62,499 nucleotides of DNA, filler included, from 7 parts of 7 records of this genome joined end to end with filler, not necessarily neighbours in it, one strand, 5' to 3'. Numbered from the whole stretch's first letter, positions 156 through 43,069 are shown. Translations and numbers: made by a program. Notes: generated by a model from the sequence alone, not told the origin.

Positions 156-3100
156 TCAAGCAGAGCATTGCCGATTCAGTTCATCCTCGCACAACAAGAG
201 CCGCACAACCAACTGGAAAGGCTCGTGCCACGAGGGCCCCATGAGTGCGGCTACTTGCTGCGTGATCACGTCCTCGTCATCTAGCTCTGACATCCCCTCG
301 AGAACTCGGTACACCTGCAACCTGGGTGAGCCTCCTCGCTTAGCGGCCAGCCACCTGCAGAAATAGACTTTCCCCGTACTTTTGCTCTAAATACATCCGC
401 AGAGACTCAATCTGGTAGCAAAGCGAGTCCTGGCTGCCAACATTCGGCAACACCAGCGTCTTGCCATCAGAAATCAGTCTACCAAGCCCCATGTCTGGAT
501 CTGCCTCGACGGGAGCGTTAACCTCCTCATGCGGGGCGTCGGGGATCGATACAATGTCAACCTCGTCTTCTGCAGCCGCGCCGTTCTCCTCCATGGGGTC
601 CTCAAGACACTCGTGCATCGACTGCATCAAATTGACCAAGTTGTCCGCTTCCTCCTCAAACTGGGCCTCAGTCATGGTGCTATCCTCATCTGCCAAGTGC
701 ATCTCCTGTTGGGCTTCGACGAACTCGCGCTCGACACTGAACTCGACAGGCTCAGCAACTGGCCGAGGCGCCGGCGGCGGAGGCGCCACAGCAGCGGTCG
801 AGAACTCCTCTTCGGCTGCAGCTGTCTCATGCCGCCTTTTGGGACTTGAGTCGAGCACCAGCTCGAACTCCACTTGGTTCACGGGAGGCCTGACATTTTG
901 TTCGATCGGAGCTTGATCCGCTCGCTTATCAAGCACCAGCTCGAAATCAAACCCGGACGGGTCATTTATCTGGCGCTTCGCTTGCTCCATTCTCTCGTGC
1001 ATAGCCTTGCGCTGCTCCTCCCTCTTTTGCCTGCGAGCATCGAGCTCCGGATTGGACGCCACTGGCTGCGGTTCTTCCCTCTGGACCTTCTTGGCCACCT
1101 GATCTGCTTTCTGCTGCTTTGCTGCTGCTTTGTGCGCGTCGATCATTTCTTTCACGCTGGATTCTCTTCGGTTTGCCGCACGCAGCGCCACAAGCCGTTC
1201 TCGATGCTCTTTCTCTTCTTTCAGCTTCTGCTGCTTCTTGTCCTCTTGCTTCTTCTTGAATTCTGCTTTCTTCCGTGCATGATCCTCCATCATTTGCATC
1301 TCTAGCAGCTCCTTTTGCGCCCGCTCGGCAGCCCGCTGCTCGTACCGATCCATCTGCTTGCCTGCTTGGTTTGGACGACGCGCACCATTCCCTTTCCGGT
1401 GTCCGTTTCGGGGCGATGCTCGAGGCGAATTTCGAGGCGAGTACCGGGGCGATCGGTCTGCTTGCATTGCAGCGTCATTGGCGGCCTTGATGCCTTCAAT
1501 GTCAAGGATCAACTGCTTATCTTTCGGCGAGCGAGCCCCCAGGTTGCGCTGGACCTGCTGCACTACTTGTTCCATCTTGGCCTGAGCCGCCTGCCTCTCA
1601 GCAGTCTCCCGTGCAATGCCCAGAGGGCTGAGTGGCTCGGGCAAGTCTTGATCCATGGCATCACGTGCTTGCTGGAATTTCTTAAGACGATTCAGCATTG
1701 TCATTTCAGCCTCGTTGGCTCGCTCGGCAGTGCCTCCGTCGTCGTCAGTTTCGTTCTCTCTATTGAGCTGGAATGCCTGCAGTCGGTGCACCATCGACTG
1801 CGCTTGAGTATCGACGACCAACCCTTTCTTTGTCTCAGCCGCTGGGCCCAGCCCGTCCGTGTCCTCAGTGGGTTGTGAGGCCCTATCCTTGAACTCTTGA
1901 AGCCTGCGCATCATGGTGGCTTCGGCGTGCTCTTGCTTCTCCTCTGGTGTAGCCGCATCCAGCTTCTGTGTCTCACACAGGGGGCTTGCGCTCGCCTGGG
2001 CCGGTGCCACTTCAGCAGTACAACTATTCCACGCATCACTCCCTCCCGCCGCCGCCTGCTGCGCCTGCCTGGCCGCTTCAGCTGCCTGCTGTTCTGCCAG
2101 CTGCCGGGCCACTCGGGCGGCTTCGGCTTCGGCGGCTTGCCGCTTGCGAGCCCCAGCCTGCCTCCGAGCCTCGATGTCCGCCTGCACCGCAGCTCTTCGC
2201 CGTTCGTCATCCGCCCGCCGCTTCCGGGCGTTCTCTTCTCTCTTAGCCTCGTCCTGCCTCTTCCTCATGGCCGCTTCCTCCGACTTCCGCCGCTCCTGCT
2301 CCTCCTTCTGCTTGCGTTGCTTGGCCTCACGTTTAAGTCTCTGCTCCCGCATTGCCTTCACTCGTTCGTCCCTCGCCTGCTTCTCCAGCGCCTCTCTGAG
2401 CGCCTTCTCCTCGGCCTCCGCCTTTTTTCTGGCCCGGTGCTCCTGCTCCTTCTTTTGCCTAGCTATCTTCTCCTTTTCGTACTTCATCTTTGCTGCAGCT
2501 TCGCGACGCATCTTATCCTCTCTTTCTCTCTTTGCTCGCTCTTCCGATGCCTTCTGTAACCGCTGTTGCTGCTGTTGCTGCTGCTCCCGCCTCTGCCGGT
2601 CCCTGGCCATCATCTCCTCGTGGTCTTTGTTCCGCTGGTTGGCGTCATTTGCTCCTCCTACACGAAACACGCTCGGGTCCTGCTGGCCATTCGCTGACAA
2701 ATCGGTCGTAGCGTTCTGCCCGCCCCGGCCCTCCGCCTCCTCTCGCCGCCTGTGCGCCTCCTTGAGCCTCTTCAGGATCTCTGCTGGTCGCTCCTTCTTA
2801 AAGTGATCTACCTGGATCGCTGGGCTCGGTCTGTGCAGCATCGTATGAGCGAACTCGTCAACCCGAATGGTCTGTGAGAGGAATTTGGAGATCCTCTCCC
2901 TCACAAAGCTCTTCTTGAGGATTTGGCCCACCGTCGGCCGCCGGCGAGGGTCCTTTGAGAGCATCAGAGCCACCAGATCCCGCACATCCTTGCTGTACTT
3001 GGATGCGATCGGTGGGTAGATACCACGCAGGATCTTCACAACCAGCCCTCGCATGTTGTTCCCCTCGAACGCGTGCCTCAGCGTGAGCAGCTCATACAGC

Positions 3101-4044
3101 AGGCAGCCCATCGCCCAGATATCACTGACCACACCCTCAGAGCAGGCCAGCCGCTCCCGACACCTCTTCTGATCGTAAGGCTTTTCCTGGCAGATTTCAG
3201 GCGACAGATAATATGGGGTGCCTGTGCCCGGGTGAGCCCAGACAGGCCACGCGCTGCCGACCAATGGCTGTCTTTGCGAGCTCGCCAGTGTTCGACAGCA
3301 CTTTGCTGATTCCAAAGTCGCCCACCCGAACGAGCCTGCACTCTCGACTCAGCGGCACGGGGCACGGCCGGCGCACTTTTTATTTCCAGTCAGAAATATG
3401 TTCTGGGTCTGCGGCAGACACACGGCTCGCGCGGGCCGGGCTGGGCCGAGTCACCTTGAGGTCTCTGTGCAGAATCTTACGGTCGTGAATGTGCTTTATC
3501 GCCAGGCAGATCTGCACAAACCAGTCCAGCACCTGCTCCGAGCCTCGCGCCGGCCCCCGCCGGAGCCCGGACCGTCTCCTCGCTGAAGGTGCTGCGCTTC
3601 GACTTCATCTGCTTGACTGTATCGTGCAGGTCGCCTGCCTGACGCTCAGCGGCAGCCCGGCGCCCACGGCCCGGACCGCCCTCGGCGAAGTCCATCAGAA
3701 TGCAGAGCCAGCCCTTTTCGAGGAACGATTCGCGGTAGGTGACGATGCACGGGTGCTTGGTCAGCACCGATAGCACCGAGATCTCGTTCATGGCCTCCTT
3801 GATCTCCTTGGGCTGTCAGAGCGCCGCCCGCGGTCAGCCCCAACCCCCCGGGGCGCGGCCCACCTTCATCCGGGAGACATTCACCTTCTTCAAGCAGTAC
3901 TGCCGCGTGTCCCGCTGCCCCCAGATCCCCGCTCAGCCGGGGGCTGGCCACCGGGCGGCCGGGGCGTCGAACCTTATCTTTGACGAGCCACGCCTCGCCG
4001 AAGCCGCCCCGCCCGAGCAGCTTCACCTCCCGGTACTTGTCCAT
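156..4044 (-). CDS. NEK1: NIMA-related Ser/Thr kinase, NEK1-like (kinase, long charged coiled coil, NEK1-type C-terminal domain); about 8 short introns
   Basis: Spliced N-terminus reads [21 protein letters not shown]...[11 protein letters not shown]...MDFAEGGDL...[19 protein letters not shown]...[10 protein letters not shown]...[28 protein letters not shown]-terminal [24 protein letters not shown] motif. Stop TGA at 156-158. Confidence 0.9.
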
Positions 4045-4300: not shown

Positions 4301-6124
4301 TTAATAATCATAATCATCATAGTCATACTCAAGTATCGGTTTTTTCAGGGCATACTCAAGTACAGGTTTTTTCGGGGGGTGAGGTTGAACCTGAGTGGGG
4401 TCATCAAAAACAGAGTCATCCCACATGCCCGGATCTTGTCTTGCCGAGGGTATTACACAACGTACAGCAGCAGCTGCTGCATTCACATGCGGAGGATACC
4501 GACCCCAGTATCCATCTGGGTTTGCAGCTTTGAACACATCCATGAAGATCTGTTTTGCACCCTCGATCTTCCAGCCTTCAACCTCATTTGCGTCTTGGCA
4601 TCGGGCAAGTCGTTCATTGTATTGCTGCAAGCTACAGCTTCCTAGATTGCGTGGTACTCGTAGGTCACTGATCTTGTGCACAGCCAAGATAGCTTCTTTT
4701 GGAATATGTCTGCTAACAACGACGACACGGTGGGCGCAGGCAAAGTGATGGGTTTGTGAATTGGTTGAGTAGTGCGATGGCATGAGAGCTTTGAACTTGG
4801 CTGAGTCAGACACATCATTGATGTTTTCCAGGGGAATTTTAGAGTGATCGATCTGTACAACAATCTGCAGAGATCGCGAGTTGAGTGCCGCTGCATAATA
4901 CATGGCTGTCTCTGCGTCTAGCGATGTGTGTATGAATTGGCTTGGCCGAGATCCGTCTGCGATTGATGTGTACAAGCTTACGTTGGCTGTCACATCAGCA
5001 GGAAAGAGGCCGTTCTCATAGGACTCGCCAGCACGCAGCCCCCGCCACAGGAACTGTGTTTCGGTCAGTGCGTGGAGCTCGACCCTCTTGTGACGCAACT
5101 CTGCCTGCTGATCTCGAATTGAGTTGCCCAGCGCATCAACAGCATTAGACACCGCGCCAATGCGGCGCGTATCCCGTCGCTCTGCGCGTTCACGCTGTGC
5201 TCGCTGTACAGCACGGCGTCGCCTCTCAGCCGCCTCCGCCTCCTTCCGTTCCTTGTCTTCCTTCTCCCTTCGCTCTGCCTCAAGCCGCTCCTGTTCTACG
5301 CGTAGAACAAGCTTACGCAATTCTATCGCGGCCTCCTTCTCCTGCTGTTCACGCTTTCTGTCAGCATCATAAGCCCGAATGCTAGCTGCTCGAGCCTGAC
5401 TGCGCTGCTTATGGTCACGATAGAATTGCGTAAGCTTCGACTTGAGCTCGCTAGCAATTCCGGTGCTGCACTGAAATCGCTCTGGGCGTATAACAATCCA
5501 AGAACCATCGCCCGCTACTGCCACGTCTAACACCGGATCCTTGCCACCACTTTTCAGTTCGTTGCCAAAGTGCTCGCCAACAGCTTTCCATTCAGTACCC
5601 TCCGAATCTGCTATGAAGTACCCACCATCAGGCAGAAGCCGAATGCATTTGATTGTCCCTTTGTTCTCGTGAATCCGATCAACCCTTTCCCTCAAATCAT
5701 CATCGACGTTCCAGGAAAGCCAGTATCCGTTGGTGCCTTGCACCAGTGCACACCTGTCTTCGTCACCAAAGCTGACTTGGACTCGATGTTGACTTCTAGT
5801 CCGCTCCTTTATGTTGTCTGTTGCGCCCGTGCCACCCCACCAAGCGTGACACCCGGTACCATCGCGCTTTTTACCTCTCACATACCATTCGCCATTGGGC
5901 CCGTGGGCGACATCGGTAATGTACCTTCCCTTTGCATAGCAGTTATTGAGCTGCGACGCCAGCTGGCTCGGCAGGCTTCCGGGACCAGTGGTCCAGTCAT
6001 TTGACTGCCAATCAGTGGTGCCATCTGATTCGTCGAAGAAGTACAGATAGTCGTCTCCGGTACCACCTAAGATTACCTTCAGCCGGCTCCCAGCGCTGCC
6101 CGTCAATGGTGCAGGCCTCGACAT
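4301..6124 (-). CDS. Intronless protein: N-terminal beta-rich repeat domain, coiled coil, C-terminal ADP-ribosyltransferase-like fold
   Basis: Open frame from ATG 6124, the first ATG in the ORF. Motifs FLWRGL..GL, SQFIHTS...A..YA, IVVQID and VVVVSRHIPKEAI follow ART-fold strand order. Confidence 0.65.
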   Translation of the reverse strand: MSRPAPLTGSAGSRLKVILGGTGDDYLYFFDESDGTTDWQSNDWTTGPGSLPSQLASQLNNCYAKGRYITDVAHGPNGEWYVRGKKRDGTGCHAWWGGTGATDNIKERTRSQHRVQVSFGDEDRCALVQGTNGYWLSWNVDDDLRERVDRIHENKGTIKCIRLLPDGGYFIADSEGTEWKAVGEHFGNELKSGGKDPVLDVAVAGDGSWIVIRPERFQCSTGIASELKSKLTQFYRDHKQRSQARAASIRAYDADRKREQQEKEAAIELRKLVLRVEQERLEAERREKEDKERKEAEAAERRRRAVQRAQRERAERRDTRRIGAVSNAVDALGNSIRDQQAELRHKRVELHALTETQFLWRGLRAGESYENGLFPADVTANVSLYTSIADGSRPSQFIHTSLDAETAMYYAAALNSRSLQIVVQIDHSKIPLENINDVSDSAKFKALMPSHYSTNSQTHHFACAHRVVVVSRHIPKEAILAVHKISDLRVPRNLGSCSLQQYNERLARCQDANEVEGWKIEGAKQIFMDVFKAANPDGYWGRYPPHVNAAAAAVRCVIPSARQDPGMWDDSVFDDPTQVQPHPPKKPVLEYALKKPILEYDYDDYDY

Positions 6125-6282
6125 GTAGCTGACCACCTGTCTCTCGAGACCTGCTGACCTATCTCTCTTCCCCGGACTGTGCCACCAGAACCTGCCGAAC
6201 CTGCCACACACTTCCGTTGCCACTGCCGTTGCAGCACCACCAAGCGCTGGTTGAACGACGCAGGTAGCCAGCACCACCACAC

Positions 6283-7109
6283 ATGGCCAGAGGCAGCCTC
6301 AGCGCAAAGTTTGCGACCATCGTCAACCAGGGCGGCCGGGGCGGTCGAGGCGGCCGAGGCCGTGGCCGCGGTCGAGGCCGGGGCCGGGGCGGCCGGGGCC
6401 GGGGCGGCGTCAAGACAGTCCAAACGGTGCAGCGGCTGGATGGCAACGCTGACCAGGCAGCCCGCAGGTGGTGGTGGCCAAGGCGCGCCGCCAGGGCCAG
6501 ACCCAAGTGTCCCGGAAGCAATCCAGGTCCCCCCAGCCCAGTCGACAGCCCGCTCATCGCCCGCGCAGGGCCAATCTGCTCGCCGCCAAGCGGAACCGCG
6601 CCGCCACGCAAGTGGCAGGCAAGGGTCGGGGCCGAGGCCGCGGCCGCGGGAGAGGACGGTGTGCGCCAGTCCAGATGAGGACGCTCAGCCGGCTGGGGCA
6701 GGGGACGCGGGGCTAGCAGAGGCCGCGGCAAAGGCAAGGGCGGGCGCGGACGTGAGTAGCCACCACAGACTGACTTAGCCGGCCGCTAGCGGGCGCTTGT
6801 GTCGCGTGCGCGGTTCGATCGTCGGTCTGACCCCGAGTTTGCTGCAGGCGGCCGCGGCAAGGGCAAGGGCGGCAAGGGCGAGTCACCCAACCCGGAGGCC
6901 ATGGACGACGACTTGGACGAGTACATGGGGCGCGACGTGGCCGCCGCCAAGGCGGTGCGCTGGCCACCCAGCGGCCGACGGCTGACCGGGCGCAGGAGCG
7001 GAAAATCGCCTCGCTCGATGATGACCTGGATGCTTACATGGCCGCAGACAAGGCTGACGAGGCTGTAGCGGAGCCGGAAGCTGTGGCTGAGCCTGAGGCC
7101 GCCCTGTGA
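6283..7109 (+). CDS. RGG-rich protein with C-terminal FoP/CHTOP-type duplicated LDxDLDxYM motifs (mRNA export adaptor-like); 5 introns
   Basis: N-terminal SLSAKF, RG/RGG tracts and spliced C-terminus AMDDDLDEYMG...SLDDDLDAYMAA. Stop TGA at 7107-7109. Confidence 0.8.
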
Positions 7110-13163: not shown

Positions 13164-15453
13164 CTAGCTCATCGCATTGCTATAGGCCAGCAAATGGCTT
13201 GAGCTCACTTTCACAGTCAGTTTGCTTTTGGTCACCCAGCCAGCAACTGATGCTCGAACATCGTCTTGCAGCTTCGCTCTAAGCACACACGGCCCTTTCG
13301 AAGGCAACTGCGACGAATATGGCACCTGTATACACCAGCTCGCCTACAATGAAACCTAAATGAAACCAAGATCACCTGATCTTTGTTCATTCTGAGTCGC
13401 AAAAGGCTGCCCGGCTCTTTCGTAGCATGCAGTTTGACCTGCGAAATAGCAGCCTGAACAGACACGCCAAAGGTAACCGAACCTGACACAGCAGTTGCTT
13501 GAACGCGGCGGGCTCAAGCTTGATCAGTCTCCCTGGCTTCCAATGGTCTGCCAGCACACCCGAGCACGCGGCAGCCGTCGGCACTAGCTTGCCTGCCTCG
13601 CCTACTGGCAGTTAGCAGAGCAGTGCACGGATCTAGGCATGCCTTGCTCGAAGAGGACCGCTCCCGCGTGTACGATGTTCAGCAGCGGGCGCTCATCTTC
13701 GAAGCCATGCGCATGCACGGCAGGAGGCAGCCACAGTATTCGGTTCATCGCTGAGGACCGTGCCAGCATCGCGCCTTGCCAACACAGCGTCAGCGCCTCT
13801 CACCCCCGGCCTGGTCACCTTTCATGCCGCGCATACTCTTGATGCTCAGTCCGCTCGCCTGCCCAACACGTTCGCCCAGCCGCTGCTGACCCGAACCTTC
13901 GCCGCAGCGCGGGCCGAAGGACCTGCGCCATGCCAGCAACTGAGCTTGCTACGGGTGCGATGCGCAGCTCTGTCGGCCGTAGCCACGGAGGCAGAGCGGA
14001 CAGCAGGCCCCGGGATGGCGGCTCTCTTCCTGAGGAGCGCAACAAAGAAGCCGCCGGTGCCCGAAAGGTGAGGGTACAGCCGCATGCACTTGCTCAAACC
14101 CGCCGGGTGCTCCGGAGGCCATAAACTCTCACAGAACGCGTGACGCTCCTCCGGCGGCACAGCTTGAAGCGAGTCGAACTGCCGGAACTGGTCGTCCAGG
14201 ACAGCCCAGTGTGACAACCCACTGGCTCTCAGCAGCCCCGGCAGCCTTTGGCGGGTGTCGACTAGCTCCAAAGCTCCGCCACACCTTTCTAGCAGCGCGG
14301 CTACCACAGCCTCGTCTTCACTGCAACAGGCCTGGCTCAGCTGCGGCGTCGGATTTGGTGGGACTAGTGGCCACCCTTCTAGTATTGGTTTCTAGCATTA
14401 CTAGTAGTACTGCTTACATTGGGTTGAACGAGCAAGTGGAGTAAACCATCAAGCCTCCCGTCTTAAGGAGAGCAGCTGCCCTCATTGCGATCTGCAACTG
14501 GATATGATGCAGCTTGACGCCAAACTGCCACCCGCTCAGACCAGCGCCGACCAACGCGCACCATTGGATGCCATGTCTTCCACACTTTTGGATCTTTCCT
14601 TAGCGTGCCATCGCCAGAACACGGCACGTCGCATACAATCTTATCATAACAGCCCTCGGGGTACCGTGCCGCGCCCTCCGGCGCCGAGTGCACCACATTC
14701 GGGAGCCTGTGCGCGCTGTGGCAGCACACCAGCGCGTTGGCGGCGGCCGGGCCTAGCTTCTGCAGCCGTGCAGCCAGCATGCAGCACCGCCGCCTGTCCA
14801 AGTCATTTGCAACCTGTCCCCACTCCCGCCCGGCCCACGGAGCCCGCACCACCAGGCCGGTCCTGGCCGTGGGCTGACTGGCCATTGTGTCCAGCAGCTG
14901 CAGCGTCTTGGACCCCGGCGCCGCGCACATATCGGCGACAGCGTCGGTCGGCTGCACATCCAGCAACAGCGCCGGCACCATGCTCGCTAGCTCCTGGCGG
15001 GCCACGCGCCCGGCGGCCGCCTGCTGCCCGAGCCACCGATTAGCCGCCCGGAGCACCGGACCCCCGTGCCGGTCGGCCAGCTGGTTCCGGTCGCAGCCCA
15101 GCTCCCAAGCCCCGCCCCAGCCCACTGGCCGCGGCGGGTCGAGCCCGGCTTCCGCCCAAGCCCAGGCCGGGGGCAGCTCGGCCGCGGGGTCAGGCGGCGG
15201 GACTCCGGACGACTGGTTGAGCCGGAAGGTTACTGGGAGCGGCCACCGGAGCGCGGCCAGGCAGAGAGACCACTCGTCCCAGGGCAGCACAGGCTGCAGC
15301 GCGTAGTACCTGGGCCGGCCTGTGAGCCCACACCGGCCTGGGGACCGACCGCTCGAAGTCTGAGGCCGGCCGGTGGGGCGTGCTCGCGGGACCCGGGTCC
15401 AGTCGCCGGCGCTTGGCCCGAGTGAGGCTGCGAGACCGAGCTCTCTTCCCCAT
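13164..15453 (-). CDS. RsmB/NOP2/NSUN family RNA m5C methyltransferase (NSUN2/Trm4-like); several introns
   Basis: Motifs RQELASMVPALLLDVQP..VADMCAAPGSKTLQL, ANDLD, DKIVCDVPCSGDGTLRK, MVYSTCSFNP-EDEAVV and RLYPH..TGGFFVALL. Confidence 0.9.
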
Positions 15454-15671
15454 GTCCGGCACGGCAACCCGGCTGGTTGGGTGGAAAAGCAACGGCACGG
15501 GAGCGGCGTAGCAGCGGCGAAGTACACACGAGGCTAGGCAAGGTGAGCATGTCCGCCCAGCCACGGATACATCGGAATAATACTACGCGGCTTCATTTAA
15601 TTCGGAGTCAGACGAATCAGTTGCTGTTGTCATCCTCCGCAAAGTGCCGGCTATACAGGTAGCATCGTTGT

Positions 15672-18600
15672 CTACCGTACAGCCAGCTCCTCGGTCGGTT
15701 TGTCTCGTAGCTGCAGCATCATAGGTTCCAGCATAGCATTGAATGCGTCGTCTGCGCACATAACCTCGCTTTCTTCGTGATAATCTCGGCGATGCATATC
15801 ATCATACATCGCCACAGCCTGCAACACAATTTCGATGAAGCCACATTTCAGCCAAGGAATTGGCTATGGCGATCCCTTATATACTATCAAGTACATACCC
15901 AAGTGAAGAACTCGTCCCTAGTTGCGGCATCCTGCTCCCCAAACAATTCTAGATGGCAATCCTCCATGCAGCTCTCGAGATATTCAGTCATCTCCTCTTC
16001 CTCAAAGTCCTCTGGACAATCCCTCCGCATCTCAGTTTCAAGCGTTTTCTGTACTGCCAGTCAGCCTTGCTATGGAGTTAGTTCGGATACCACAATCAGG
16101 TCCACAAACTTCTCGACTCCAAACGATCCATCGCCCTCTGTGTCAAGTAGTTCAAACACCTTGAGCGCCAACTCCCGCTGGTCTGCCAGCAAGCACAATC
16201 ACACAGGGGCCCCTGCGTAGGCAAGGTGGTCGCCTTCGGGCAGTCGCTCCGAGTCGTCTGCTAACCATTCATTGCCTTGTTTCCGTGCCTGTGTCGCGCT
16301 TTCTTCGTTGTCGTCCAGGAAAAGCACGGATACCTTCACTGCTCTCTTCCGAAGAGCGCGCAAGGAGCTTCTGAGTTCAGACATTGACTGGTCCGGGCAC
16401 TGGTCGTTTGCGAACCTAACAACACCCAAGGCCTTCTCTGTGTTCCACACTTCGCCATCAAATGCGTGTGGTCCATGGAATAACTGGTACGCCCAGTCGC
16501 GCGAGCAATGGCCATACTGGAATGTCAGGTTCAAGTGTTGGAGATGTTCAAGTGACTCTAGCCATTCTCCTAGCTTGTCTAACTCCACTAGCGGGCACTG
16601 AGCAAATGTCAGCCCAACCTCTCGCAGGGAACGACTTTCTTGCAGTCTGCTTGTCAGCTTGAGCAGGTCCAAATCAGGAATTTCCTGATCAGCTACAGGC
16701 CGGCCTTCGGAATTGCGTATAGGTTCCATCGGCACGATCTTTAGAGCAATACTTTTCAGTGCTGTCAGCTGCTTTAACAGCTGGCCCAAATGTTGGCATG
16801 AATTGTCGTAATTTGTCCAATGCAGACAGAGCTGCTCTAGACTAGGCAAAGGTTGCATTGGTACCGGAATCGCGACGTTGCAATCGCAACCCGTAGGCAG
16901 TATGTCTTGCTGGTTGTCGATAGAACTTGCAGTATATCTACCAACATCATACAGGCGCAGTTCAAGCTGCCGCAGCCCCCCCAAAGCCTCGAGCGTTGCT
17001 CGCAGGGGTCCCAAATCCTTCAGATCGCTGCAAACACTGAAGTCGAGCTTCAAACTTGACAACTCTTGTAGGTGCTGGAGCGATGAACACAGCGGAGAGA
17101 TGTCAGATAGGCCGGGCTGATAACCAGTTTCGTTACCATCCTCATCAAAAGTTTCGCTTCCACCGCAGCCAGCAAAGCTCAGCCTCAGATGTTCTAGTTC
17201 TGTGAGCGCTTGGAGGGACTGGCCAAGTGTTGACAGGTCTGTCAACGGGCTGTTATCCAGGACTAGTTCGAGATGCTGCAGCTGCGTCAGTTCTGCCAGC
17301 GAGCCGAGGAACTTGTCCGGATTCCAAGACGGAGGATAGGATGGGAATTTCAAGCTGAGATTAAGATACCGAAGCTTCGTTTGTGAGCGCAGCCCAGCAG
17401 CCAGCCCTCCGATGTCTTGTGGGTATAACTTGTCATCAAATATCCCTGACAAGTCGAGCTCAAGATGCTCCAATCCTGTCCAATCCTGTACCAAGGTGGT
17501 CAGTGGTGATAACCGTCCCTCGGGTGGCGCGTCTCGCAGCGGCGCACCAAGAGGCACTTCCGTAAACCCCCTGAACATCAGTGTCAGGCGCTTCAATGTC
17601 GTCGATCGGTGCTTCTCGAGTGCCGAGCAAATATCAGCCAAGCTTCGCAGTTTAGACAAGCCAGATTGCGAGAAGTTGAGCTCAAGAGCAGCACGCGTTT
17701 CCTCTATTGGCAACAACTCCAAGATTTCCTGCAGCCCCAACCTTTTATCAGCATGCTGCGCGCATGTTAAGAAAACTGTGTCACCACTCCCCAGCTGCGA
17801 TATGAGCCGCACTTCAAATCGACCCTCATAGCTGCGTCCAAGCACATGGTGTGCAGCAGCCGATCGACCTGCAGGCAGGTGCATTCACTGTGACAGCACT
17901 CGACGCCACACAACTTGCCTCGTCGTATTTCGGATGTTCTTCAAATGGTTCAGCAGCATCAAGCTCTGACACATCCACTCCGCAAATTGAATTGAGGATT
18001 CGCCGTCGATCCTGTTCCCAAGAGGCTTGCCCGTCGGTAACGCTTCCACCAGCTCCGTGCAGGAGGAGCTCCACGTTGAATCCTCCTTCGCTTTCCAAGC
18101 CTTGCGCCACCACTTGCGGCTCATGAAGTGCTGTCACATCTCCGGTTTGCTGACCCAATTCATCCATCAATACTTTCTCGTGGTGCTGCCCTGCAATCGA
18201 CGCCATCCCATAATGTCCCATGGCAAAATCAAACTTGAGCCTTCGTTGTCCCGATGAATCTTTCGCCAACATACACATAGCCATCTCGAAGCTGCAGGGC
18301 ACATACATCTTAGAGCCGAGGCTTTACTTGGCACGGACCAGCACCAAATGCGTGTGAAAGGCGTCGCACGGTTGTCCAGCACCAGCAGCACCCCTGGAAT
18401 TCAAAAAGTATCTCTAAGGCGACACACATGCACTGCAGGCCATACCTTCGCATGTGAGCAGAGCCTTCGCAAAGGAAGTCTGGGTAGGATCGATGCTGAT
18501 GTCGCCCCCTAGCTGATGTTGATTGTTGGCATCTGCAATACAGCAGCACTCAGGGTTAAATCCGGCAGCAGCACTCACATGCACAGATCCAGTAAGCAGT

Positions 18601-20894
18601 GGTGGCGCGCTGCGAATCCCCGTGGAGTGCTCGAGTCTGTGCCTGTTCCTCCAGCGCTGCGATGAAGGCAAACACAGGTTCGCCCCACCTTGGCCCACAG
18701 TCTCAAGCACATGCCGGACTGTCTCGTACCAGTGGGAACAAAACCAGTTTGGTTGCTGGACGAGTGGATCCGCATTGCAAACCAACTCAACATAGCTACA
18801 CTGAAAGCCTTCTGTACTCGGCCTGATGATCCAGGAGTCGACCTGACAACACCAAGCTAATTGGTGCTTGCGGGGCTCGATGGGCCACCTGGTAGAGATT
18901 TATTGTATGGCAATTCAAGCGCTGACCGGATGTACCTGAGTACTTGGCTGGCGCTAGGTCGGTCCAGCCCTCCAGCCACCCCATATGCGAACTATTCCTC
19001 TTGATGAACTTACGAAGCTGGTTCAACTGCGGCATTGTAATACCTCGGTTCGCAGCACCTTCGATCCACGTACAATCTGTACCCAACGCAGAGAATTCGA
19101 GATCTTGCGGCTGAATGGGAGCCACAGGGCCACAAAAGCCGCAAAAGGCCAGGAATTCCTGCGGGCTGCGAAACGGCTGCCTGTCATTGACCATGAGCTT
19201 GCCCAATTGTGCGCATCCTGTGAAATTGATTTTGAGACTGGTCAACTGTGCCATTGCAGCTACAGCCGCCGCTAGAGCGGGGACAGAGACGGCCAGGAGA
19301 CGAATGCATGCACTGAAATTGAGATCGAGCAGCCAGACATTTTCTAACAGTCCCAGAACTTGCGTTAGTGGCGTGATGTCTGACAGCGCAGTACAGGCCA
19401 AGAACTTGATTGAAAGTGAGTTCAAACTACCTGCGAGCGCTTTGAGTGATGCCCCCAGCATAGCTGTATCAGACAGCATGTAGTCATTCGCAAAGCTGAG
19501 CTTTAGAATTCTGAGGTTGCAATACTGCAGTGACGACAACAACAGCTCCTGTGAAGCCGTGATCCCTCTGATACCCAGCAGCTGCTGGTCAGTTGGTTCG
19601 TGGCATTCTTTGCCGGGCTCGACTGCGCCAAGGGGTGCACCCACACCAGCCAGCTTGAGAGTCAGATTATCCAACGCCTTGAGCTGGGACAGAGACTTCC
19701 CGAAGACTTCCAGGTCCACCAGTGCTCCGCAGGACCTCACATCAACTGTGAGAGACGCCAGAGACTCGAACAAGGGCAGTGCCGCCCCTAGCATGGCGAT
19801 GTCCGTGAGCACAGAGCAGCCTCCAAATATGACCTGAAGATGCCGAAGATTTGGAAGCTCTTCAAGTTGATCCCATTCCATATAACTTGAGTACTGCGTA
19901 TTCGTACGAAGGAGCTGCAGCAGATCGAACACAGCCTCTGGGCTGCGACCGGCCTTGCCGAAGTTGACCTCCAGTGCTTCGTACCCAGTTCTATCCAGCT
20001 TGGAGGGGAATTCTACCATTGAACGGTCAAACTTGAGCCGCAGGCCGTCTCCCTCACGGTCCCATGGGCACATTTCGATCTCGAATCGGTGTGATCCATC
20101 TGAATCGCAGCTTCCATCAGAATTATAGCCGTCTGATGGGCTCTCATCGGCTCGACCAGCTCGATCAGCGTCCGGCCAGCTGAACGGGGTGGCCTTGATC
20201 ACCTCCGAGAGCTCCTCCTCCTCTTCCGGGTGCCAGCTGCACAGCTCTTCCTCCTGCTCCGGGCTAGAGTCTGAAAGCTCCTCCTCCGACCGCGCTTCCT
20301 CTGCAGAGTCACAGTCAGCGGAAGGGGCGCAAACACAAGCAACTGGCTCCGGACCACAAGCCCAGTGCTGGCTCCGGATCCCAAGCAACTGGCGCACTAG
20401 CTCCAGCGTCGCCTCCTGCCGCTCCCTGAGCGCCTCGCCGGCGTCCTCTGGCGCTTCGGCTGGCTGGTCGAGCAGCCGGAGCATCAACGGCCCCAGCGGC
20501 TCACACCCGGCCATCCCGAACCTGCACCGCCGCTCAGCCGCACCCCACTGAGATCGGTTACCGATCCCAGAAGCCCCCGCGCACCACCACCCGAACAAAG
20601 TCGCTGAAACTCATGCTCTGATCCCCGAAGGCCGCCACCAGCCGGCCCGCCGCCCGGCGCACATTCGGATCCCTACCCACCCCGGGGATAGCCTCTGTGA
20701 AGACTCGGACCAGGCCCTCGAGATCTGCCTCGCCGCTCGCCGCCGCGGGCCGACTGCACGTCACCGAGTCTGGCGTCGATGGCCCAGTAACACTCCAGCG
20801 AGGCGAGCGCCGCGCAGGCTGCCGGCTCCGACTCGCCGGCTCGGAGGAGCGCGATCCACCGCGCAGCTTGAGGCTCGGTCGCAGCTGCAGCCAT
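15672..20894 (-). CDS. LRR - HET/TIR-like domain - LRR - EF-hand protein; about 12 introns
   Basis: Two LRR blocks (LxxLxLxFxxCxxLxD). The spliced central domain reads WFCSHWWGEP...YWICAYANNQH...SFAKAL...VLLVLD..ATPFTRIWCCFE. C-terminal EF-hand-like FELLDTEGDGSFGVEKF. Confidence 0.75.
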
Positions 20895-21151: not shown

Positions 21152-21949
21152 TCAATCGAACTTGCTCGGAAACATGAACGGGGCCAGCTCGACCCTCGCC
21201 TTGTCCAGCAGGAAGGCCGCCGCAATCTGCCGGAACAGCCTCCAGGGCACCCCGGAGTACATACCCCTCAGCCCGCGCTCGCGCCAGATGGCGGCTGCAG
21301 TCTCCGAAGTCGACTTGTATTGCACTCTTTCGATGTCGCCCTGCATGCAGGTCTTGATGGTGTCAAATGGGTGGCTCAGGTAGCACCCAAAGAACCCTGC
21401 AGCGATGGCCGCCGGCACCCGGGCGCCGTCCTCGCTCATGCCGTACGATTCGACGAACCCCTCCCTCACAGCAGGGGCAACCCCTAGATACCCCGCGCAG
21501 TACACGCCCTCGCGCATGGCTGTCATGAACGTACCCCTAAACAGCGTGCTCGGGCCGGCCGCGATCAGGCTGCCCATGGTGCCCGGCATCGAGCCGCCTT
21601 TCCGTTGCTGCTGGATCATCACAAGCTCCAGCGGCGAGCACACCACGGCCGAGGTGAACCCAGCCGCGAACCCAGCGGCCAACTGCTCGTGCGGGGCGAG
21701 TGGCCGGAGCTTGCCCCCGGTGATGGCCTTTTTGACGTAGCCGTTGGCGAAGAACTGGAAGCCTGTGGCTACGCCCATGTTGCTCACATTAGCCAGGTAG
21801 CCCCGGTAGAGCGTGGCCGGGTTGATGGTCCAGGGTAGGCCCTGCTGGGCCGCGTTCTTCCAGTAGTTGGCCGACTGCAGCAGCGACACCTCGATCACCC
21901 CCGCCGCCACCCCGAGCAGCGTGTTCTCCACCTCAGTCAGGTTCTGCAT
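21152..21949 (-). CDS. Mitochondrial carrier protein (SLC25 family), intronless
   Basis: Carrier signatures SPLELVMIQQQ and HPFDTIKTCMQ, plus LYRGY / LFRG / MYSG repeats. Confidence 0.93.
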   Translation of the reverse strand: MQNLTEVENTLLGVAAGVIEVSLLQSANYWKNAAQQGLPWTINPATLYRGYLANVSNMGVATGFQFFANGYVKKAITGGKLRPLAPHEQLAAGFAAGFTSAVVCSPLELVMIQQQRKGGSMPGTMGSLIAAGPSTLFRGTFMTAMREGVYCAGYLGVAPAVREGFVESYGMSEDGARVPAAIAAGFFGCYLSHPFDTIKTCMQGDIERVQYKSTSETAAAIWRERGLRGMYSGVPWRLFRQIAAAFLLDKARVELAPFMFPSKFD

Positions 21950-22009
21950 GACTCCTCCCACGACGCTGCGAGCTCACCGGCCGCGGCCGGAAAAAAAGCC
22001 AGCTGCAAC

Positions 22010-30530: not shown

Positions 30531-33500
30531 CTATGCACACTTAGGTCGCTTTCGTGGCCAAAAATTGGCTTCGCTAGGAACAAGGCTCATGACAGCAGGT
30601 ACAAGGATTTTGGTTGAAACGAAACAAGCGAGAAGCACACCAATGCTCATCACAAAGGCCACCTGATTGAGAACAGGTGTGTCACAAAAGAGCAAGGCAG
30701 TGAAGGCTATCAGCATTATAACGCCAGCGACCGCAACAATGTTGCCAGTATGACGCAGTGCGCCGATGACAGCCTGCCGGCCATCAAGCCCATGGTCAAA
30801 GTGCTCAACAACACTTTCTGTGAAAAAGATATCATAGTCCAAACCGAGGCCACAAACCATGTTGAACGAGATTGTGGGCGAGATCCAAAAGAGTGCTCCG
30901 CACGAACGCTTGAAGCCATTTATGCCTGTCCACTCCAGGGCACCATCTTGGTAAACAAACACTGCAAGGCCGAACGTGACGATGAAGATCCAGATCAGGC
31001 AGACAACAGCACGAAGGGGAATAAGGACCGACCGGAACGCCACCATCAGTATGACCCCCACCACACCCAGAGTAGCGCCCATGACTTTGGGCAGAGCATC
31101 AAAGGTGTCATGTGAGGCATCAAGCTGCTCGCCACCCATTCCAGCCAGGTACAAATTGCCAATATCTGGGTTTTTGATCTTGGCGCGCCCCATGGCGTCT
31201 CGCATGGCTTTGATCCACACCTAGCCAATAGGATCAGCACTAAAGAGAGTCATGCATCTACCTGCCCGTCGGAGGAGAATGGATCGAGAGTGAGCTTGAT
31301 CATCACCTGACAAGCAAATCAGAGAAGCATACTGCCCACTGACCTTGGTCGCTGTACGGTCAGTGTTGCCATAAAACGACAGCAGACTATCCCCAATCGA
31401 CGAGACAATAGGCAGTGGCAGCTCGAGGGCCACTGTCAGTTCCCATATGCAAAAGCCACTTTGGATCATCACGCCACTGAAATCAGAGATGCTCATATTG
31501 TACTGAACCCCCTGAGCATGCAATGTGCTTGTGACATCAGACGCAATCTCAGCTAAGGTGGCACAGGTCTCATTCAACCAGAAGGGGTTCTCAAGGGATG
31601 CCCTATCTGGTGGCTCTATCATCAGTGTGTTTGGAAAGATGGTACCTGAACCGAAGTTTGCTTGAAGCTTAAGGAATGCACTTGTGGTGTCATCGCTCCG
31701 TGGGAGCATCGACTGGACGCCTTCAATATAATCCATTGGCTTCATCCCCAGAGGTGTTCCTAGCAATCGCAGTCCAAACGGCACAGCTGTTGCCACAAGA
31801 GCTAGAATAGTGACCAGCCAATGGCGCTGCACCCAGCTGCCTAGCCGCGCCCACAACTTGGCAGCTGGTCTAGGGTGCTCCTCCTCCGACGATTCTACGT
31901 CGTTGGGTTCCAGGTCCGAGGTCAAGCTGCGTGGTGTCCAGGGGACATCATCCTCGGCCTCACACTTGATGCTAGATCGCACAGGAGATCCAACACCTGA
32001 TTGTTCCTTCAAGTCGGCAGAGCCAGTGACACGACATGCAGAGTCATCTGCAGCTATTGGCACGCTAATGGAATCAGACTCTCTGGGCATAACCGAGTCC
32101 CTAGTCTGTTCATCTGGTTTGATAGTTGTAGCATCGCCCTCGTGATCCAGCGGGGAATATGCACATTCTTCAGAACCAATCCCCGCAGCTGCCTCCTGAT
32201 TCTCTTCCAAGCCACCTGCATCTCCCACTCGACTGAAACCTGTCGAGGCATCAATAGTACGCTTGCCGATGCCAATGCTGTTCAGAATGCCAATATCATC
32301 TAAGGTGCAGCCCCATCTACGATTGGAGGCAAAGAATTCAGGCGCACAGAGGAGCACTGCAGGTTGCATCGTGAGCGCAGCCAGCATGGTGAACAGCACA
32401 GAGAACGAAGCACAAACCCCCACAGTGGACAGGGTAGAAGTCGGTATCAGCAGCATTGCCAGAAAGACCATAAAAAGCACACATCCGGATAGCGCTATCG
32501 TGTGTCCAGCTGTCCTGAGAGTGGCCTCGACAGCTGCTGCGGCACTCGGATTGTGACGGGCCTCTTCATTGAATCGCGAAAGCAGGAAGAGTGAATAGTC
32601 AATGCTCAGTGCGAGAACGAGGGCAAGCATGATGGCAGGGGCGAAGGCCGTGACCGAGACAGCGGAGGCGAAGGGATAAGCCACACAGAGAGCCGCTGTC
32701 TGGCCACATCCAATATTGAGGAGCCCAAGCAGCAGCAGTCTCACAGAGCGGAGCATTGCGAAAAGCACCAAGAACAGAAGCGGGGACAGCATCACTGATA
32801 GATCCATGCCAGCATTAACCCCATCCAACACAGTCTGATACACAATGGGCATGGAGATGACGGACAGCTGCATGTCAGGCTCCGAAGCTTCATGTGTAAA
32901 TTGCTTGAGTCTTTTCTGCAGCGAAGCAATCGGAGTGCAATGATCCTCGCCACTGCAACACACAGCATCTCAAATAGGTCTGATGCGAGCTATTGGCACC
33001 GCAACACACAGTCCGAGGTGAGTCGCTGGCCCTTGCAGTCGGTCGCCTGCACCAAAGCGAGCGTGTGCAGCCTGTCGGGAGAGAATATCTGATCTGCAGC
33101 GTATCGCTTGATCAAATCATCAAGTATTTCAGTGACAGATGCATTATCCAGATTGAACGGCAGCACCCACGGCAATTTGATGTCATACTCACTGATGAAT
33201 ACGTATCGGCACTGCTGGCTGTCCAGCTCGCTTCTTGTCATCTCCAAGACACTGTGTGAAATATCAGCTGCTCGATCACTCGGAGGCAGGCTGTGATTCT
33301 TGAACCCGCAGTGGCTCTCCCATGGGCAGCTGACGTTGTTCAGGGTGTGGTGCGAAAACGGGAAATACGGGTAGAATAGGCACAGGCCTGCAAGCCGATC
33401 AGCCAGCCATCGGCCGGAGGTGCACCGCAGGTCTTGTTTTTGAGTGAGGGCAGTGAAGAATTATGCCGCAGCGGGGTGTCGGCGCTGGTCATGACAATCA

Positions 33501-33930: not shown

Positions 33931-34053
33931 AGTGTCAGCGTACTGTCAGCGGCGCTGTGTTCGTCCACGTTGCGTGGGAACTTTTAACGGAATTTCGCAG
34001 CTCTCCGCCGTCTCGGAGCTCTCTTCCGGCGCTTCCGGCGCTCATCTCATCTC

Positions 34054-34962
34054 ATGCTCAGCCGGCTCTGCGTCTCGAAGCCGAGGGCCGCGGCTCGGAC
34101 GCTCGCCCCGCCCGCAGTCCGGCGGCTATGCACCGGTCGGCGAGGGGCGCACCCGCTGGTCGGGCTGGCGGCGGGGCTCGGGGCCGGCGGGCTGGGCTCG
34201 CTCTGTGGCGTAGGCGGAGGGCTTTTGCTGCTCGGGGCGTTCAAAAGCTTCTCGCGGCTGTCGATGCACCAGATCACCGCCACCACCATGTGCGCGCTCA
34301 CACTGGGCACCACCGTCGGAGCCGGCACGTACCTATCCGAAGGCACCGCCAACCTGCCGACTGCGGCGGCCGTTCTCTCCACCTCCGCCATCTGCTCCGT
34401 GGCAGGGACCAGGCTGGCCGGGCGCATCCCCGGGGGCACGCTGGGGCAGCTTCTCCGGCCAATAATTGTGCTCTCGGTGCCGGTCGTGTTGTCCAAGACG
34501 CGGCTTGCTAGGGAGTGGCTGCCCCAGCTGTGTACCCAGCCCCAGCCTCGCTCTCTGAAGCATACAGTGCCCCACCATAACATGACGGCCGAAGAAATGA
34601 TCGCAGAGCTGCAGGCAGTGGTGGCCGGCAGTCCCAGCGCCATGGCCGACGCCACCCGCCGGTACATCGCTGTGCACTGGCAGCACATGGCAATTGGGGC
34701 AGTCTCAGGCTTGGCGACCGGGCTGTTGGGGGTGGGCGGCGGGCTGGTGATGATGACGCTGCTCGGCAACAGCATGCCGCAGCACGAGGCGGTGGCCACG
34801 TGTATCGTGGTGATTGTCCCTACAGGCGTGATTACCTCACTGATGAATGCAGCGGCCGGTAGGCTGCACCTCGTAACGGCGGTCGGTGCGGGTCTCGGTA
34901 ACATGGTAGGAATGTACGGCGGCGCAAAATACTTGGCTCCATACGTCGATGAGGACAAGCTT
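34054..34962 (+). CDS. TauE/SafE (TSUP) family sulfite/anion exporter, 3'-truncated, with presequence-like N-terminus
   Basis: Duplicated motifs G..G.LGSLCGVGGG...HQITATT and GLATGLLGVGGG...QHEAVAT. Confidence 0.88.
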
Positions 34963-35062
34963 NNNNNNNNNNNNNNNNNNNNNNNNNNNNNNNNNNNNNN
35001 NNNNNNTTAATTAATTAANNNNNNNNNNNNNNNNNNNNNNNNNNNNNNNNNNNNNNNNNNNN
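34963..35062. other. Artificial contig linker
   Basis: N44-TTAATTAATTAA-N44. Confidence 0.99.
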
Positions 35063-42911: not shown

Positions 42912-43069
42912 GGGTTGACGATTCGTCCGTTTTTTACCGGCGCCTCGCCTGCTGGCTGTGTCCCAGCTCCCGGAGGCCCGGTACTCCCCGCACCGCCAGC
43001 GGGACCCTGTCCGCCCTTAGGACCCTTGGGACCAGCCACCCCAGTCTTTCCAGGGGCGCCCGGTAAGGG

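Follow-up and report, generated by a model that had tools for sequence, protein, structure and literature searches.

Fungal HET proteins and enzymatic TIR proteins are the described systems with which the gene reported here can best be compared. The HET family carries three conserved motif blocks. HET domains have been reported to be TIR-related and to occur in algae and stramenopiles (PMC4986451, PMC10197012); the former study extends HET homologues to non-fungal lineages, namely stramenopiles, haptophytes, choanoflagellates, green algae, and bryophytes, and describes a HET–TIR similarity, found with HHpred and jackhmmer, that covers about 100 residues in three blocks and ends at helix C (Dyrka et al. 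2014, PMC4986451). As for TIR domains themselves, the Glu of the WxxxE motif on helix C is needed for the hydrolysis of nicotinamide adenine dinucleotide (NAD+), and Toll-like receptors have a Cys at the second position of the motif (bioRxiv 10.1101/2023.05.19.541320). In the microalga Gephyrocapsa huxleyi, TIR genes have been linked to virus resistance, and the authors report that they have no leucine-rich repeat (LRR) or nucleotide-binding site partners (PMC12489294). Here, we describe a protist or algal gene on the minus strand of a 62,499-nucleotide stretch of DNA (hereafter, the window), at positions 15672–20894, whose central domain belongs, most likely and judging from structure models of its homologues, to a divergent TIR-fold family rather than to a demonstrable branch of HET.

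A conserved domain between two repeat arrays

The features of the central domain on which the argument turns are the following.

17824..19104, minus strand: central conserved domain, about residues 570–902, ~330 amino acids, with 7 short introns
18747..19104, minus strand: family-specific N-terminal subdomain, with conserved columns (RGIT.QL ... W.D ... NLY ... W.I.P.T ... CS.VEL)
17824..18746, minus strand: TIR-like alpha/beta core and helical C-terminal extension, residues 674 to ~902
18732..18737, minus strand: Ser677-His678 of WFCSHWWGE, closing predicted strand A, with S conserved in 99% and H in 100% of the family rows
18285..18352, minus strand: R759-I-W761-C762-C-F-E765 (R.WC..E), split by a 47-nt intron, with the Glu765 codon at 18287–18285

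The family was collected with a query, P0001, that is a single-frame translation of 18854–18447 and contains two true exons with out-of-frame text between them. Searched against 1.84 billion cluster representatives at E≤1e-3, it recovered 193 proteins, mostly with two matched stretches, and the homologue comparisons below concern the 150 of these 193 matches that were listed. Of the 150 listed proteins, 140 align without a break to the spliced domain (215 amino acids) at E<1e-20, the best at 2e-67, and these alignments span exons that are absent from the P0001 query. With P0002, the window domain shares 50.6% identity over 338 columns (E 2e-113).

The family consensus reads, in its first half, RGIT.QL ... 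W.D ... NLY....W.I.PAT....CS.VEL....Q.P.WF.SHWWGE...F..C...H...R.L.....YW.CAYANNQH.L and, in its second half, ......DP..SSF..A.....G.L..LD..AT.F.R.WC.FE ... D ... FP ... A.AS...D...ILN.I ... P...H..Y...N..L...FA. Within the R.WC..E motif, conservation across the family reaches 99% for R, 99% for W, 97% for C, and 97% for E, and the polar residues S, H, E, N, N, Q, D, R, E, and D are conserved at 82–100%, a pattern that favours an active site over a mere adaptor surface. Of 78 columns with at least 75% conservation, the final two of which are doubtfully aligned, the window copy retains 68, the retained residues including S, H, W, W, G, E, W, C, A, Y, A, N, N, Q, D, R, W, C, and E.

Predicted fold and placement of the conserved motifs

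AlphaFold2 models were built with a 137-sequence family alignment for two homologues, P0002 and P0112, the latter being nearly domain-only. The P0002 model has a mean predicted local distance difference test score (pLDDT) of 85.7, with ten-residue blocks at 87 or above (mostly 94–98) over residues 111–410 and one block at 75; the P0112 model has a mean pLDDT of 88.1 and a predicted template modelling score of 0.86. By VIA-align, the rows over residues 214–421 among the top 22 for P0002 are all TIR structures except one deoxyribosyltransferase, and P0112, compared with 48,161 representatives, returned TIR structures in all of its top ten, followed by nucleoside 2-deoxyribosyltransferases, more TIR chains, LOG, DprA, and SEFIR. 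TIR ranks above the other classes in all three VIA-align lists, in which few rows cover the N-terminal subdomain. With Foldseek, no match to the Protein Data Bank (PDB) reached E≤0.001 for either model; the weak lists of both hold many TIR entries (RUN1 at E 0.01, probability 0.96), with TIR entries at the top for P0002 and magnesium chelatase H chains at the top for P0112. Among viral proteins, the best structural match came from Tetraselmis virus 1, whose TIR/WD40 protein reached E 6e-3.

Secondary structure assigned by DSSP to the P0112 model places WFVSH on the first core strand (66–70), YWV on the second (96–98), and GIILVL on the third (130–135), and RIWCCFEE opens a helix (145–159) that directly follows the third strand. 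In the models, the family R-x-W-C-x-x-E would sit at the place of the catalytic WxxxE of TIR domains, W761 and E765 being the corresponding residues of the window protein. An earlier note on this DNA, made from the sequence alone, had proposed a TIR-like cell-death domain and a check of whether its WCCFE Glu superposes on the TIR catalytic Glu. The topology agrees, the helix coming after strand C, and it is an agreement of topology, not of superposed coordinates.

The same structural lists bear on the idea that the likeness reflects nothing more specific than a three-layer alpha/beta sandwich, in which case the domain would be an unrelated enzyme that uses, for instance, its conserved Cys and His residues. 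In its favour, only 128–137 residues of the ~210-residue model range are aligned in the TIR structural matches, and C201, H223, H239, C254, and C302 (P0002 numbering) are near-invariant; we know of no counterpart of such Cys and His residues in TIR catalysis. Set against this, the top ten of 48,161 representatives are all TIR and are followed by known structural relatives of TIR, when a generic likeness would be expected to bring up CheY, flavodoxin, and Rossmann proteins, which are not what follows the TIR entries. We therefore consider such an unrelated enzyme very unlikely.

Sequence tests and the HET alternative

Several observations weigh against a TIR relationship, or against its functional consequences for the window protein. 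The models are predictions for homologues that are ~50% and ~40% identical to the window protein, not for that protein itself. The Pfam TIR models (PF01582, PF13676, and kin) found nothing in 40 homologues (E≤0.01), in 29 mostly domain-only ones (E≤10), or in the window's 10 exon or open reading frame (ORF) translations (E≤1); more broadly, no Pfam family was found over the domain in either homologue set at these thresholds. PADLOC, which includes Thoeris-type TIR models, found nothing relevant in 29 homologues, and neither did NCBIfam. Searched against PDB sequences, the domain-only profile met a single designed protein at E 1, which is a chance level, and the whole-protein family profile met LRR proteins only. 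In hhalign, the family core (77 sequences) compared with 120 TcpC-like bacterial TIR sequences scored 14.9 (P 0.10–0.14), a score reached by 5 of 20 column-shuffled controls and approached by reversed profiles (13.6–14.6); this is a weak test because a single narrow TIR subfamily was used. The nonsignificant path nonetheless sets WFVSH opposite FFISH and the family Glu opposite TcpC residue 244, which we take to be the catalytic Glu of that protein. No sequence method, then, ties the family to TIR, and of the TIR-like fold proposed in the earlier note the part that stands is the structural one, TIR being the best structural match of two homologue models, with no Pfam TIR match and an hhalign score within its shuffled controls on the other side.

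The window copy itself and its genomic setting add to these reservations. On helix A, it has lost two residues of the family, a Cys (85%) replaced by Ala and a His (91%) replaced by Gln, and several family-conserved residues of the C-terminal extension are lost as well; it may therefore differ in activity. The flanking genes, encoding a mitochondrial carrier and an RsmB/F-type methyltransferase, are housekeeping genes, and a tblastn search with the gene model found no second copy in the window; nothing points to a cluster of immune genes. As a side observation, the positions of the lost Cys and His (window ~18640–18655, residues ~690–694) lie four residues apart on one helix, and P0002 keeps the His and not the Cys.

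The earlier note had favoured another ancestry, in which the domain would be a remote member of the fungal-type HET family and act as a HET-like cell-death effector. In favour of this, three conserved blocks (S-H-x-W-G; W-x-x-A-x-x-N-N-Q; R-x-W-x-x-x-E) resemble those of HET, and the strongest conservation of the family spans the same extent as the HET–TIR similarity described in PMC4986451. The Pfam HET model (PF06985), however, had no match among 40 homologues (E≤0.01), among 29 mostly domain-only ones (E≤10), or among the window exon pieces, so that membership in HET did not hold up. Nor does the ESM Atlas place a named family nearby: the 30 nearest clusters are all labelled "hypothetical protein" and lack any Pfam assignment, and one has to go as far as HNOB, at 0.76, to meet a named family. 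On these grounds we judge a HET identity unlikely, and a divergent TIR-fold family remains the reading that we prefer. The family is unnamed in Pfam, NCBIfam, PADLOC, and the ESM Atlas; a limited full-text search found no description of it, and we do not claim that it is unpublished.

Partners and distribution of the family

Recognized by Pfam in 40 homologues, the partners of the domain are LRR (13/40), ubiquitin-like domains (5/40), EF-hands (4/40), and dynein-stalk-like coiled coils (2/40), to which TPR, HEAT, MIB_HERC2, and an acyl-carrier domain are to be added. The family partners are repeat or sensor and regulatory modules. When the LRR partner is recognized by the repeat of one relative, P0003, the count rises to 61 of 144 homologues: this repeat type directly follows the domain in 59 of 144 and, rarely, precedes it (2/144).

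These partners lend weight to the view that the domain is a nucleotide or nucleoside module of the TIR/SLOG class, or an interaction module, employed in ordinary signalling linked to Ca2+, ubiquitin, or the cytoskeleton rather than in immunity or cell death. The ubiquitin-like, EF-hand, HEAT, acyl-carrier, MIB_HERC2, and dynein-stalk-like partners would suit such a role, as would the location of the gene among housekeeping genes and the matches of the family LRR profile to RNase inhibitor (E 5.4e-17), to FBXL2 (E 1.7e-16), and to the axonemal proteins DRC5 and radial spoke protein 15. On the other side, the precedence of TIR over other classes in the VIA-align lists and the position of the WxxxE suit a TIR, and the many divergent members (193, from a poor query), together with their repeat-array partners, resemble receptor families. 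Ordinary signalling thus strikes us as a rather improbable role, and we keep to a TIR-like enzyme.

The homologues come from EukProt and MMETSP transcriptomes and from Logan and JGI assemblies, two carrying the labels Gymnodinium smaydae and Polykrikos kofoidii. Nearly all known members are from protists and microalgae, in transcriptomes of dinoflagellates and other protists and in metagenomes. Three look-alike clusters of the ESM Atlas, whose kinship to the family is unchecked, have Bacillariophyta, Haptophyta, and Chlorophyta as their commonest phyla. Among viral contigs, 29 pattern matches yielded no confirmed family member. Among prokaryote genomes, one locus was confirmed (L003); it lies in a metagenome bin with an actinobacterium label, on a contig of 3.4 kb, where an intron-free open frame of at least 834 amino acids (144–2645) encodes the same domain followed by LRR-like repeats; because this domain–LRR architecture is of the eukaryotic type, L003 is probably a eukaryotic contig misplaced in a bacterial bin.

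LRR arrays and the ends of the protein

The regions that surround the central domain are the following.

19177..19944, minus strand: LRR array 1, about residues 290–545, 29-residue Cys-containing repeats (L..L..L.L.F..C..L.D...LG)
16454..17728, minus strand: LRR array 2, about residues 916–1340, the repeat type of array 1 with irregular inserts
19945..20894, minus strand: N-terminal region (residues 1 to ~289), made up of two short 5' exons and a low-complexity, acidic stretch
16144–16109, minus strand: EF-hand-like loop DTEGDGSFGVEK, residues 1392–1403, non-canonical, with Lys at position 12
15672..16091, minus strand: acidic C-terminal tail exons, with two introns and the stop TAG at 15674–15672

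Both flanks fit the LRR pattern of tandem 20–30-residue units with an L..L.L..C/N core. Taken alone in Pfam, array 1 yields only LRR_EndoS (E 0.26) and array 2 yields LRR_14 (E 1.8e-4) and LRR_4 (E 0.0074), both under cut-off, and against PDB sequences the window arrays give 0 matches at E≤0.1. The P0003 array, which Pfam recognizes as LRR_4 (E 1.3e-13), aligns by phmmer with array 1 (residues 316–390, E 2.5e-12; 432–539, E 4.1e-17) and with array 2 (988–1173, E 8.4e-20; 1269–1318, E 3.9e-5), and because both align to it, both flanks are of the same 29-residue Cys-containing type. It had been asked whether the two repeat blocks might belong to separate genes. A single exon encodes array 1 together with the domain's first 72 residues, many homologues carry the repeat after the domain, and in a relative's transcript pair, P0003 and P0152, which is 41% identical to the window over 422 columns, the LRR comes before the domain; as far as sequence can show, both arrays are therefore parts of one gene, and the LRR–domain–LRR order read in the earlier note is confirmed by the P0003 alignments.

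The lack of a P-loop or NACHT motif, also noted earlier, proved correct: there is no [AG]xxxxGK[ST] in the 1507 residues and no NACHT or NB-ARC Pfam match in the ORFs, and the same Pfam domains are absent from the 69 homologues scanned, so that no P-loop of the kind seen in nucleotide-binding LRR receptors (NLRs) and other STAND proteins is found. The only strongly hydrophobic stretch of the protein sits within an LRR unit, and the protein is likely soluble and probably cytosolic.

Toward the N terminus, the Pfam scan found no recognized domain, and a word-based homologue search among longer targets with residues 200–560 of the N-terminal ORF returned none at E≤1e-3; a like search with exon 8 also returned none at that threshold. 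The second exon (20591–20724) reads ...AAFGDQSMSFSDFVR, which resembles the latter half of an EF-hand loop together with the helix that leaves it, and Pfam finds nothing there.

At the other end, the EF-hand-like loop announced after the LRRs is present and degenerate. Its Pfam EF-hand_6 score is 15.6 bits (E 0.013) against a cut-off of 25, and its position 12 is a Lys, not a Glu, so that the window loop lacks both the acidic position 12 and the Pfam recognition of a canonical EF-hand. The exon that encodes it is joined to the LRR exon only through a putative 156-nt intron, 16333–16178, an uncertain junction: without this splicing the protein would stop at the TGA at 16204–16202, before the EF-hand-like exons, and splicing is favoured because no ATG precedes the loop in the downstream frame. 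The C-terminal EF-hand tail found no homologue match among the 150 listed; true EF-hand pairs occur elsewhere in the family, in 4 of 40 and 1 of 29 members scanned. Since the EF-hand is degenerate and the junction unproven, Ca2+ gating is speculative for the window protein; a Ca2+ link is a theme of the family and is doubtful for this copy.

Gene structure and splicing

The gene runs on the minus strand from the ATG at 20894 to the stop TAG at 15674–15672, in a region of ~53–64% guanine plus cytosine, and is a eukaryotic nuclear gene. Read from stop to stop, it shows two long open stretches, 20610–18799 (604 amino acids) and 17884–16202 (561 amino acids), rich in L..L..L.L.F..C, and between them ~1.2 kb in which the coding frame shifts every 55–130 nt. 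Our working model, model C, is as follows.

15672..20894, minus strand: whole coding region, 13 exons, 4524 nt, 1507 amino acids and stop; frame continuous with a single terminal stop
20894–20765, 20724–20591, 20547–18889, 18842–18730, 18688–18579, 18532–18446, 18393–18339, minus strand: exons 1–7
18291–17919, 17868–17785, 17728–16334, 16177–16091, 16048–15899, 15818–15672, minus strand: exons 8–13
20764–20725, minus strand: intron 1, 40 nt, picked by frame only
20590–20548, minus strand: intron 2, 43 nt, picked by frame only; an alternative 40-nt intron was seen by eye
18888–18843, minus strand: intron 3, 46 nt, GTGGCC..TGTCAG, placed by homologue P0002
18729–18689, minus strand: intron 4, 41 nt, GTACGA..GCCAAG
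18578–18533, minus strand: intron 5, 46 nt, GTGAGT..TTGCAG
18445–18394, minus strand: intron 6, 52 nt, GTATGG..TTCCAG; the P0152 transcript departs from the family frame at the same position
18338–18292, minus strand: intron 7, 47 nt, GTCCGT..CTGCAG
17918–17869, minus strand: probable intron 8, 50 nt, GC-AG (GCAAGT..CTGCAG), better homologue fit
17784–17729, minus strand: probable intron 9, 56 nt, GTGACA..CTGCAG, between a 28-codon exon and the LRR exon
16333–16178, minus strand: putative, uncertain intron 10, 156 nt, GTATCC..GACCAG, chosen among frame-keeping candidates
16090–16049 (42 nt) and 15898–15819 (80 nt), minus strand: last two introns, within the acidic C-terminal tail

Eleven of the introns of model C are GT-AG and one is GC-AG. 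The five consecutive short introns that the earlier note had read across the central domain are there, at 46, 41, 46, 52, and 47 nt, all GT-AG and never a multiple of 3 in length; their removal restores one frame, and the spliced domain, ...NWFCSHWWGEP...YWICAYANNQH...FAKAL...VLLVLDNRATPFTRIWCCFE..., matches the earlier reading exactly, the spliced product of the region of introns 3–7 being ...QQPNWFCSHWWGEPVFAF...TTAYWICAYANNQHQLGGDISIDPTQTSFAKALLTCEGVLLVLDNRATPFTRIWCCFEMAM.... A hidden Markov model built from 74 homologues only, the window sequence being left out, matched six collinear coding pieces (in order, E 1.6e-13, 4.9e-16, 5.8e-10, 5.5e-12, 1.7e-8, and 3.8e-18). Because this model and the homologue alignments recover all the pieces, the exon structure of the central domain can be regarded as established by homology.

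Some alternatives were rejected along the way. For the first of the five introns, 18935–18889 (GT..AG, 47 nt) breaks the frame, and 18935–18857 (79 nt) keeps it and removes 17 homologue-conserved residues; P0002, the closest homologue among the matches listed, reads ...YSCTSGLRLNARTINLYQVDTWIIRPAT across this site, which gives 18888–18843. For intron 8, a GT-AG candidate at 17914–17869 (model B) was set aside, its alignment to P0002 reaching E 1e-17 versus 3.1e-20 for model C, which also aligns longer.

Further observations concern the introns themselves. The intron 8 donor, GCAAGT, is the sole non-GT donor of the model. Intron density is uneven, with 7 of the 12 introns (41–56 nt) in the 1.28-kb domain region and none within the LRR exons (1659 and 1395 nt). 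P0152, a transcript-derived cluster mate of P0003, follows the family sequence up to ...SSFCRAMQ and then ends ...QGCCWCWIHKQLRSHAFGAVLS, closely like QGCCWCWTTVRRLSHAFGAG, an out-of-frame reading of the window's next exon (frame of ORF 18549–18313). This ending suggests that splicing went wrong and shifted the frame at the position of the 52-nt intron, perhaps because the intron was retained or a splice site was displaced; the position would then be common to the window gene and a related organism.

Genomic surroundings

The other genes recognized in the window are listed below.

14463–15533: RsmB/F-type methyltransferase
21152–21973: mitochondrial carrier
340–3348, minus strand: protein kinase
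4301–6298, minus strand: 665-amino-acid open frame with a weak DUF7587 match (E 7.3e-4, under cut-off)
31221–32969, minus strand: MMPL-type transporter
33988–35010, plus strand: TauE exporter
36347–38680, plus strand: S15 X-Pro dipeptidyl peptidase
43067–48100, plus strand: Kelch repeats
51473–53425, minus strand: SNF2 helicase
57095–58198, minus strand: XK-related protein

The neighbouring genes offer no functional hint. The long open frames of the window have the look of an ordinary gene-dense nuclear region with few introns.

Proposed mechanism and significance

The gene would encode a soluble protein of ~1507 residues in which a ~330-residue domain lies between two arrays of the same 29-residue LRR. 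The core of this domain is predicted to adopt a TIR-type three-layer alpha/beta fold, with WF-x-SHWWGE on strand A, YW-x-CAYANNQ on strand B and its following loop, G-x-L-x-LD on strand C, and R-x-W-C-x-x-E on helix C. With the Trp/Glu pair of helix C, the domain might cleave or cyclize NAD+ or a similar nucleotide; the LRR arrays on either side might keep the domain inactive or bind a trigger, and activation might proceed through self-association, no NTPase (nucleoside triphosphatase) switch being involved. We give about even chances to the proposal that this is a divergent TIR-superfamily domain that uses its helix-C Trp and Glu like the TIR nucleosidases and is regulated by LRRs without an NTPase; homology to TIR, catalysis, substrate, LRR regulation, Ca2+ input, and a role in immunity or cell death are all parts of it that we infer.

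A much wider proposal can be formulated, to which we lend little credence at this stage: that marine microalgae and dinoflagellates possess a large unnamed family of TIR-superfamily enzymes acting as NTPase-less, single-chain sensor-executors of defence or cell death, in which a WxxxE core that cleaves nucleotides would be under the direct control of repeat arrays (LRR, TPR, HEAT) and of Ca2+ or ubiquitin-like modules, an algal immune architecture that would be distinct from both NLRs and canonical TIR genes.

If the TIR relationship and the catalysis are true, the TIR, HET, and STIR effectors would gain at least ~200 divergent relatives from protists that dominate ecologically. Their wiring would differ from that of known receptors, with no nucleotide-binding switch and with LRRs fused directly, here on both sides. 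They would be candidates for the poorly known cell-death or antiviral machinery of bloom-forming algae and, as intermediates, could clarify how HET, TIR, and related folds connect. Even with another function, the domain merits the definition of a family.

Comparison with known systems

With the enzymatic TIR domains (plant RUN1, RPP1, and RPS4; SARM1; bacterial ThsB, AbTir, and TcpC), the modelled core shares the order strand A, helix A, strand B, helix B, strand C, helix C. Both have a Ser-His closing strand A, which may be compared with the FISH motif of the TcpC-like TIR consensus, and the W-C-x-x-E borne here by helix C parallels the TIR WxxxE (bioRxiv 10.1101/2023.05.19.541320). However, there is no detectable sequence or profile similarity between them, and whereas enzymatic TIR domains span ~140 residues, the family domain spans ~330, with its own N-terminal subdomain and a long helical C-terminal extension, and is here internal, between two LRR arrays. 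Fusion to LRRs is shared with the plant TIR-NLRs, but no NB-ARC or NACHT domain intervenes here between the TIR-like domain and the LRRs.

With fungal HET (PF06985), the family shares three conserved blocks of similar character and spacing and a frequent fusion to repeat arrays. Unlike in HET, the partners are here LRR, EF-hand, and ubiquitin-like rather than NACHT-WD40, and the Pfam model is blind to 69 homologues and to the window exons. The TIR proteins of G. huxleyi are likewise microalgal and intracellular, with a TIR fold, a conserved Glu, and a proposed immune role (PMC12489294); they are seen by the Pfam TIR models, whereas the present family is invisible to these models and usually fused to LRRs, and it would be complementary to the canonical G. 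huxleyi TIR genes. As to the repeats, RNase-inhibitor and F-box/LRR proteins have units of ~28–29 residues with a conserved Cys and are matched by the family LRR profile, but the window arrays are too divergent for a PDB sequence match or a Pfam gathering score.

Overall, the fold class and the partnership with LRRs are already known, while the family is unnamed in the libraries searched, and its size, its extra subdomains, and the NTPase-less arrangement of a domain sandwiched between LRRs are unlike any known system compared here.

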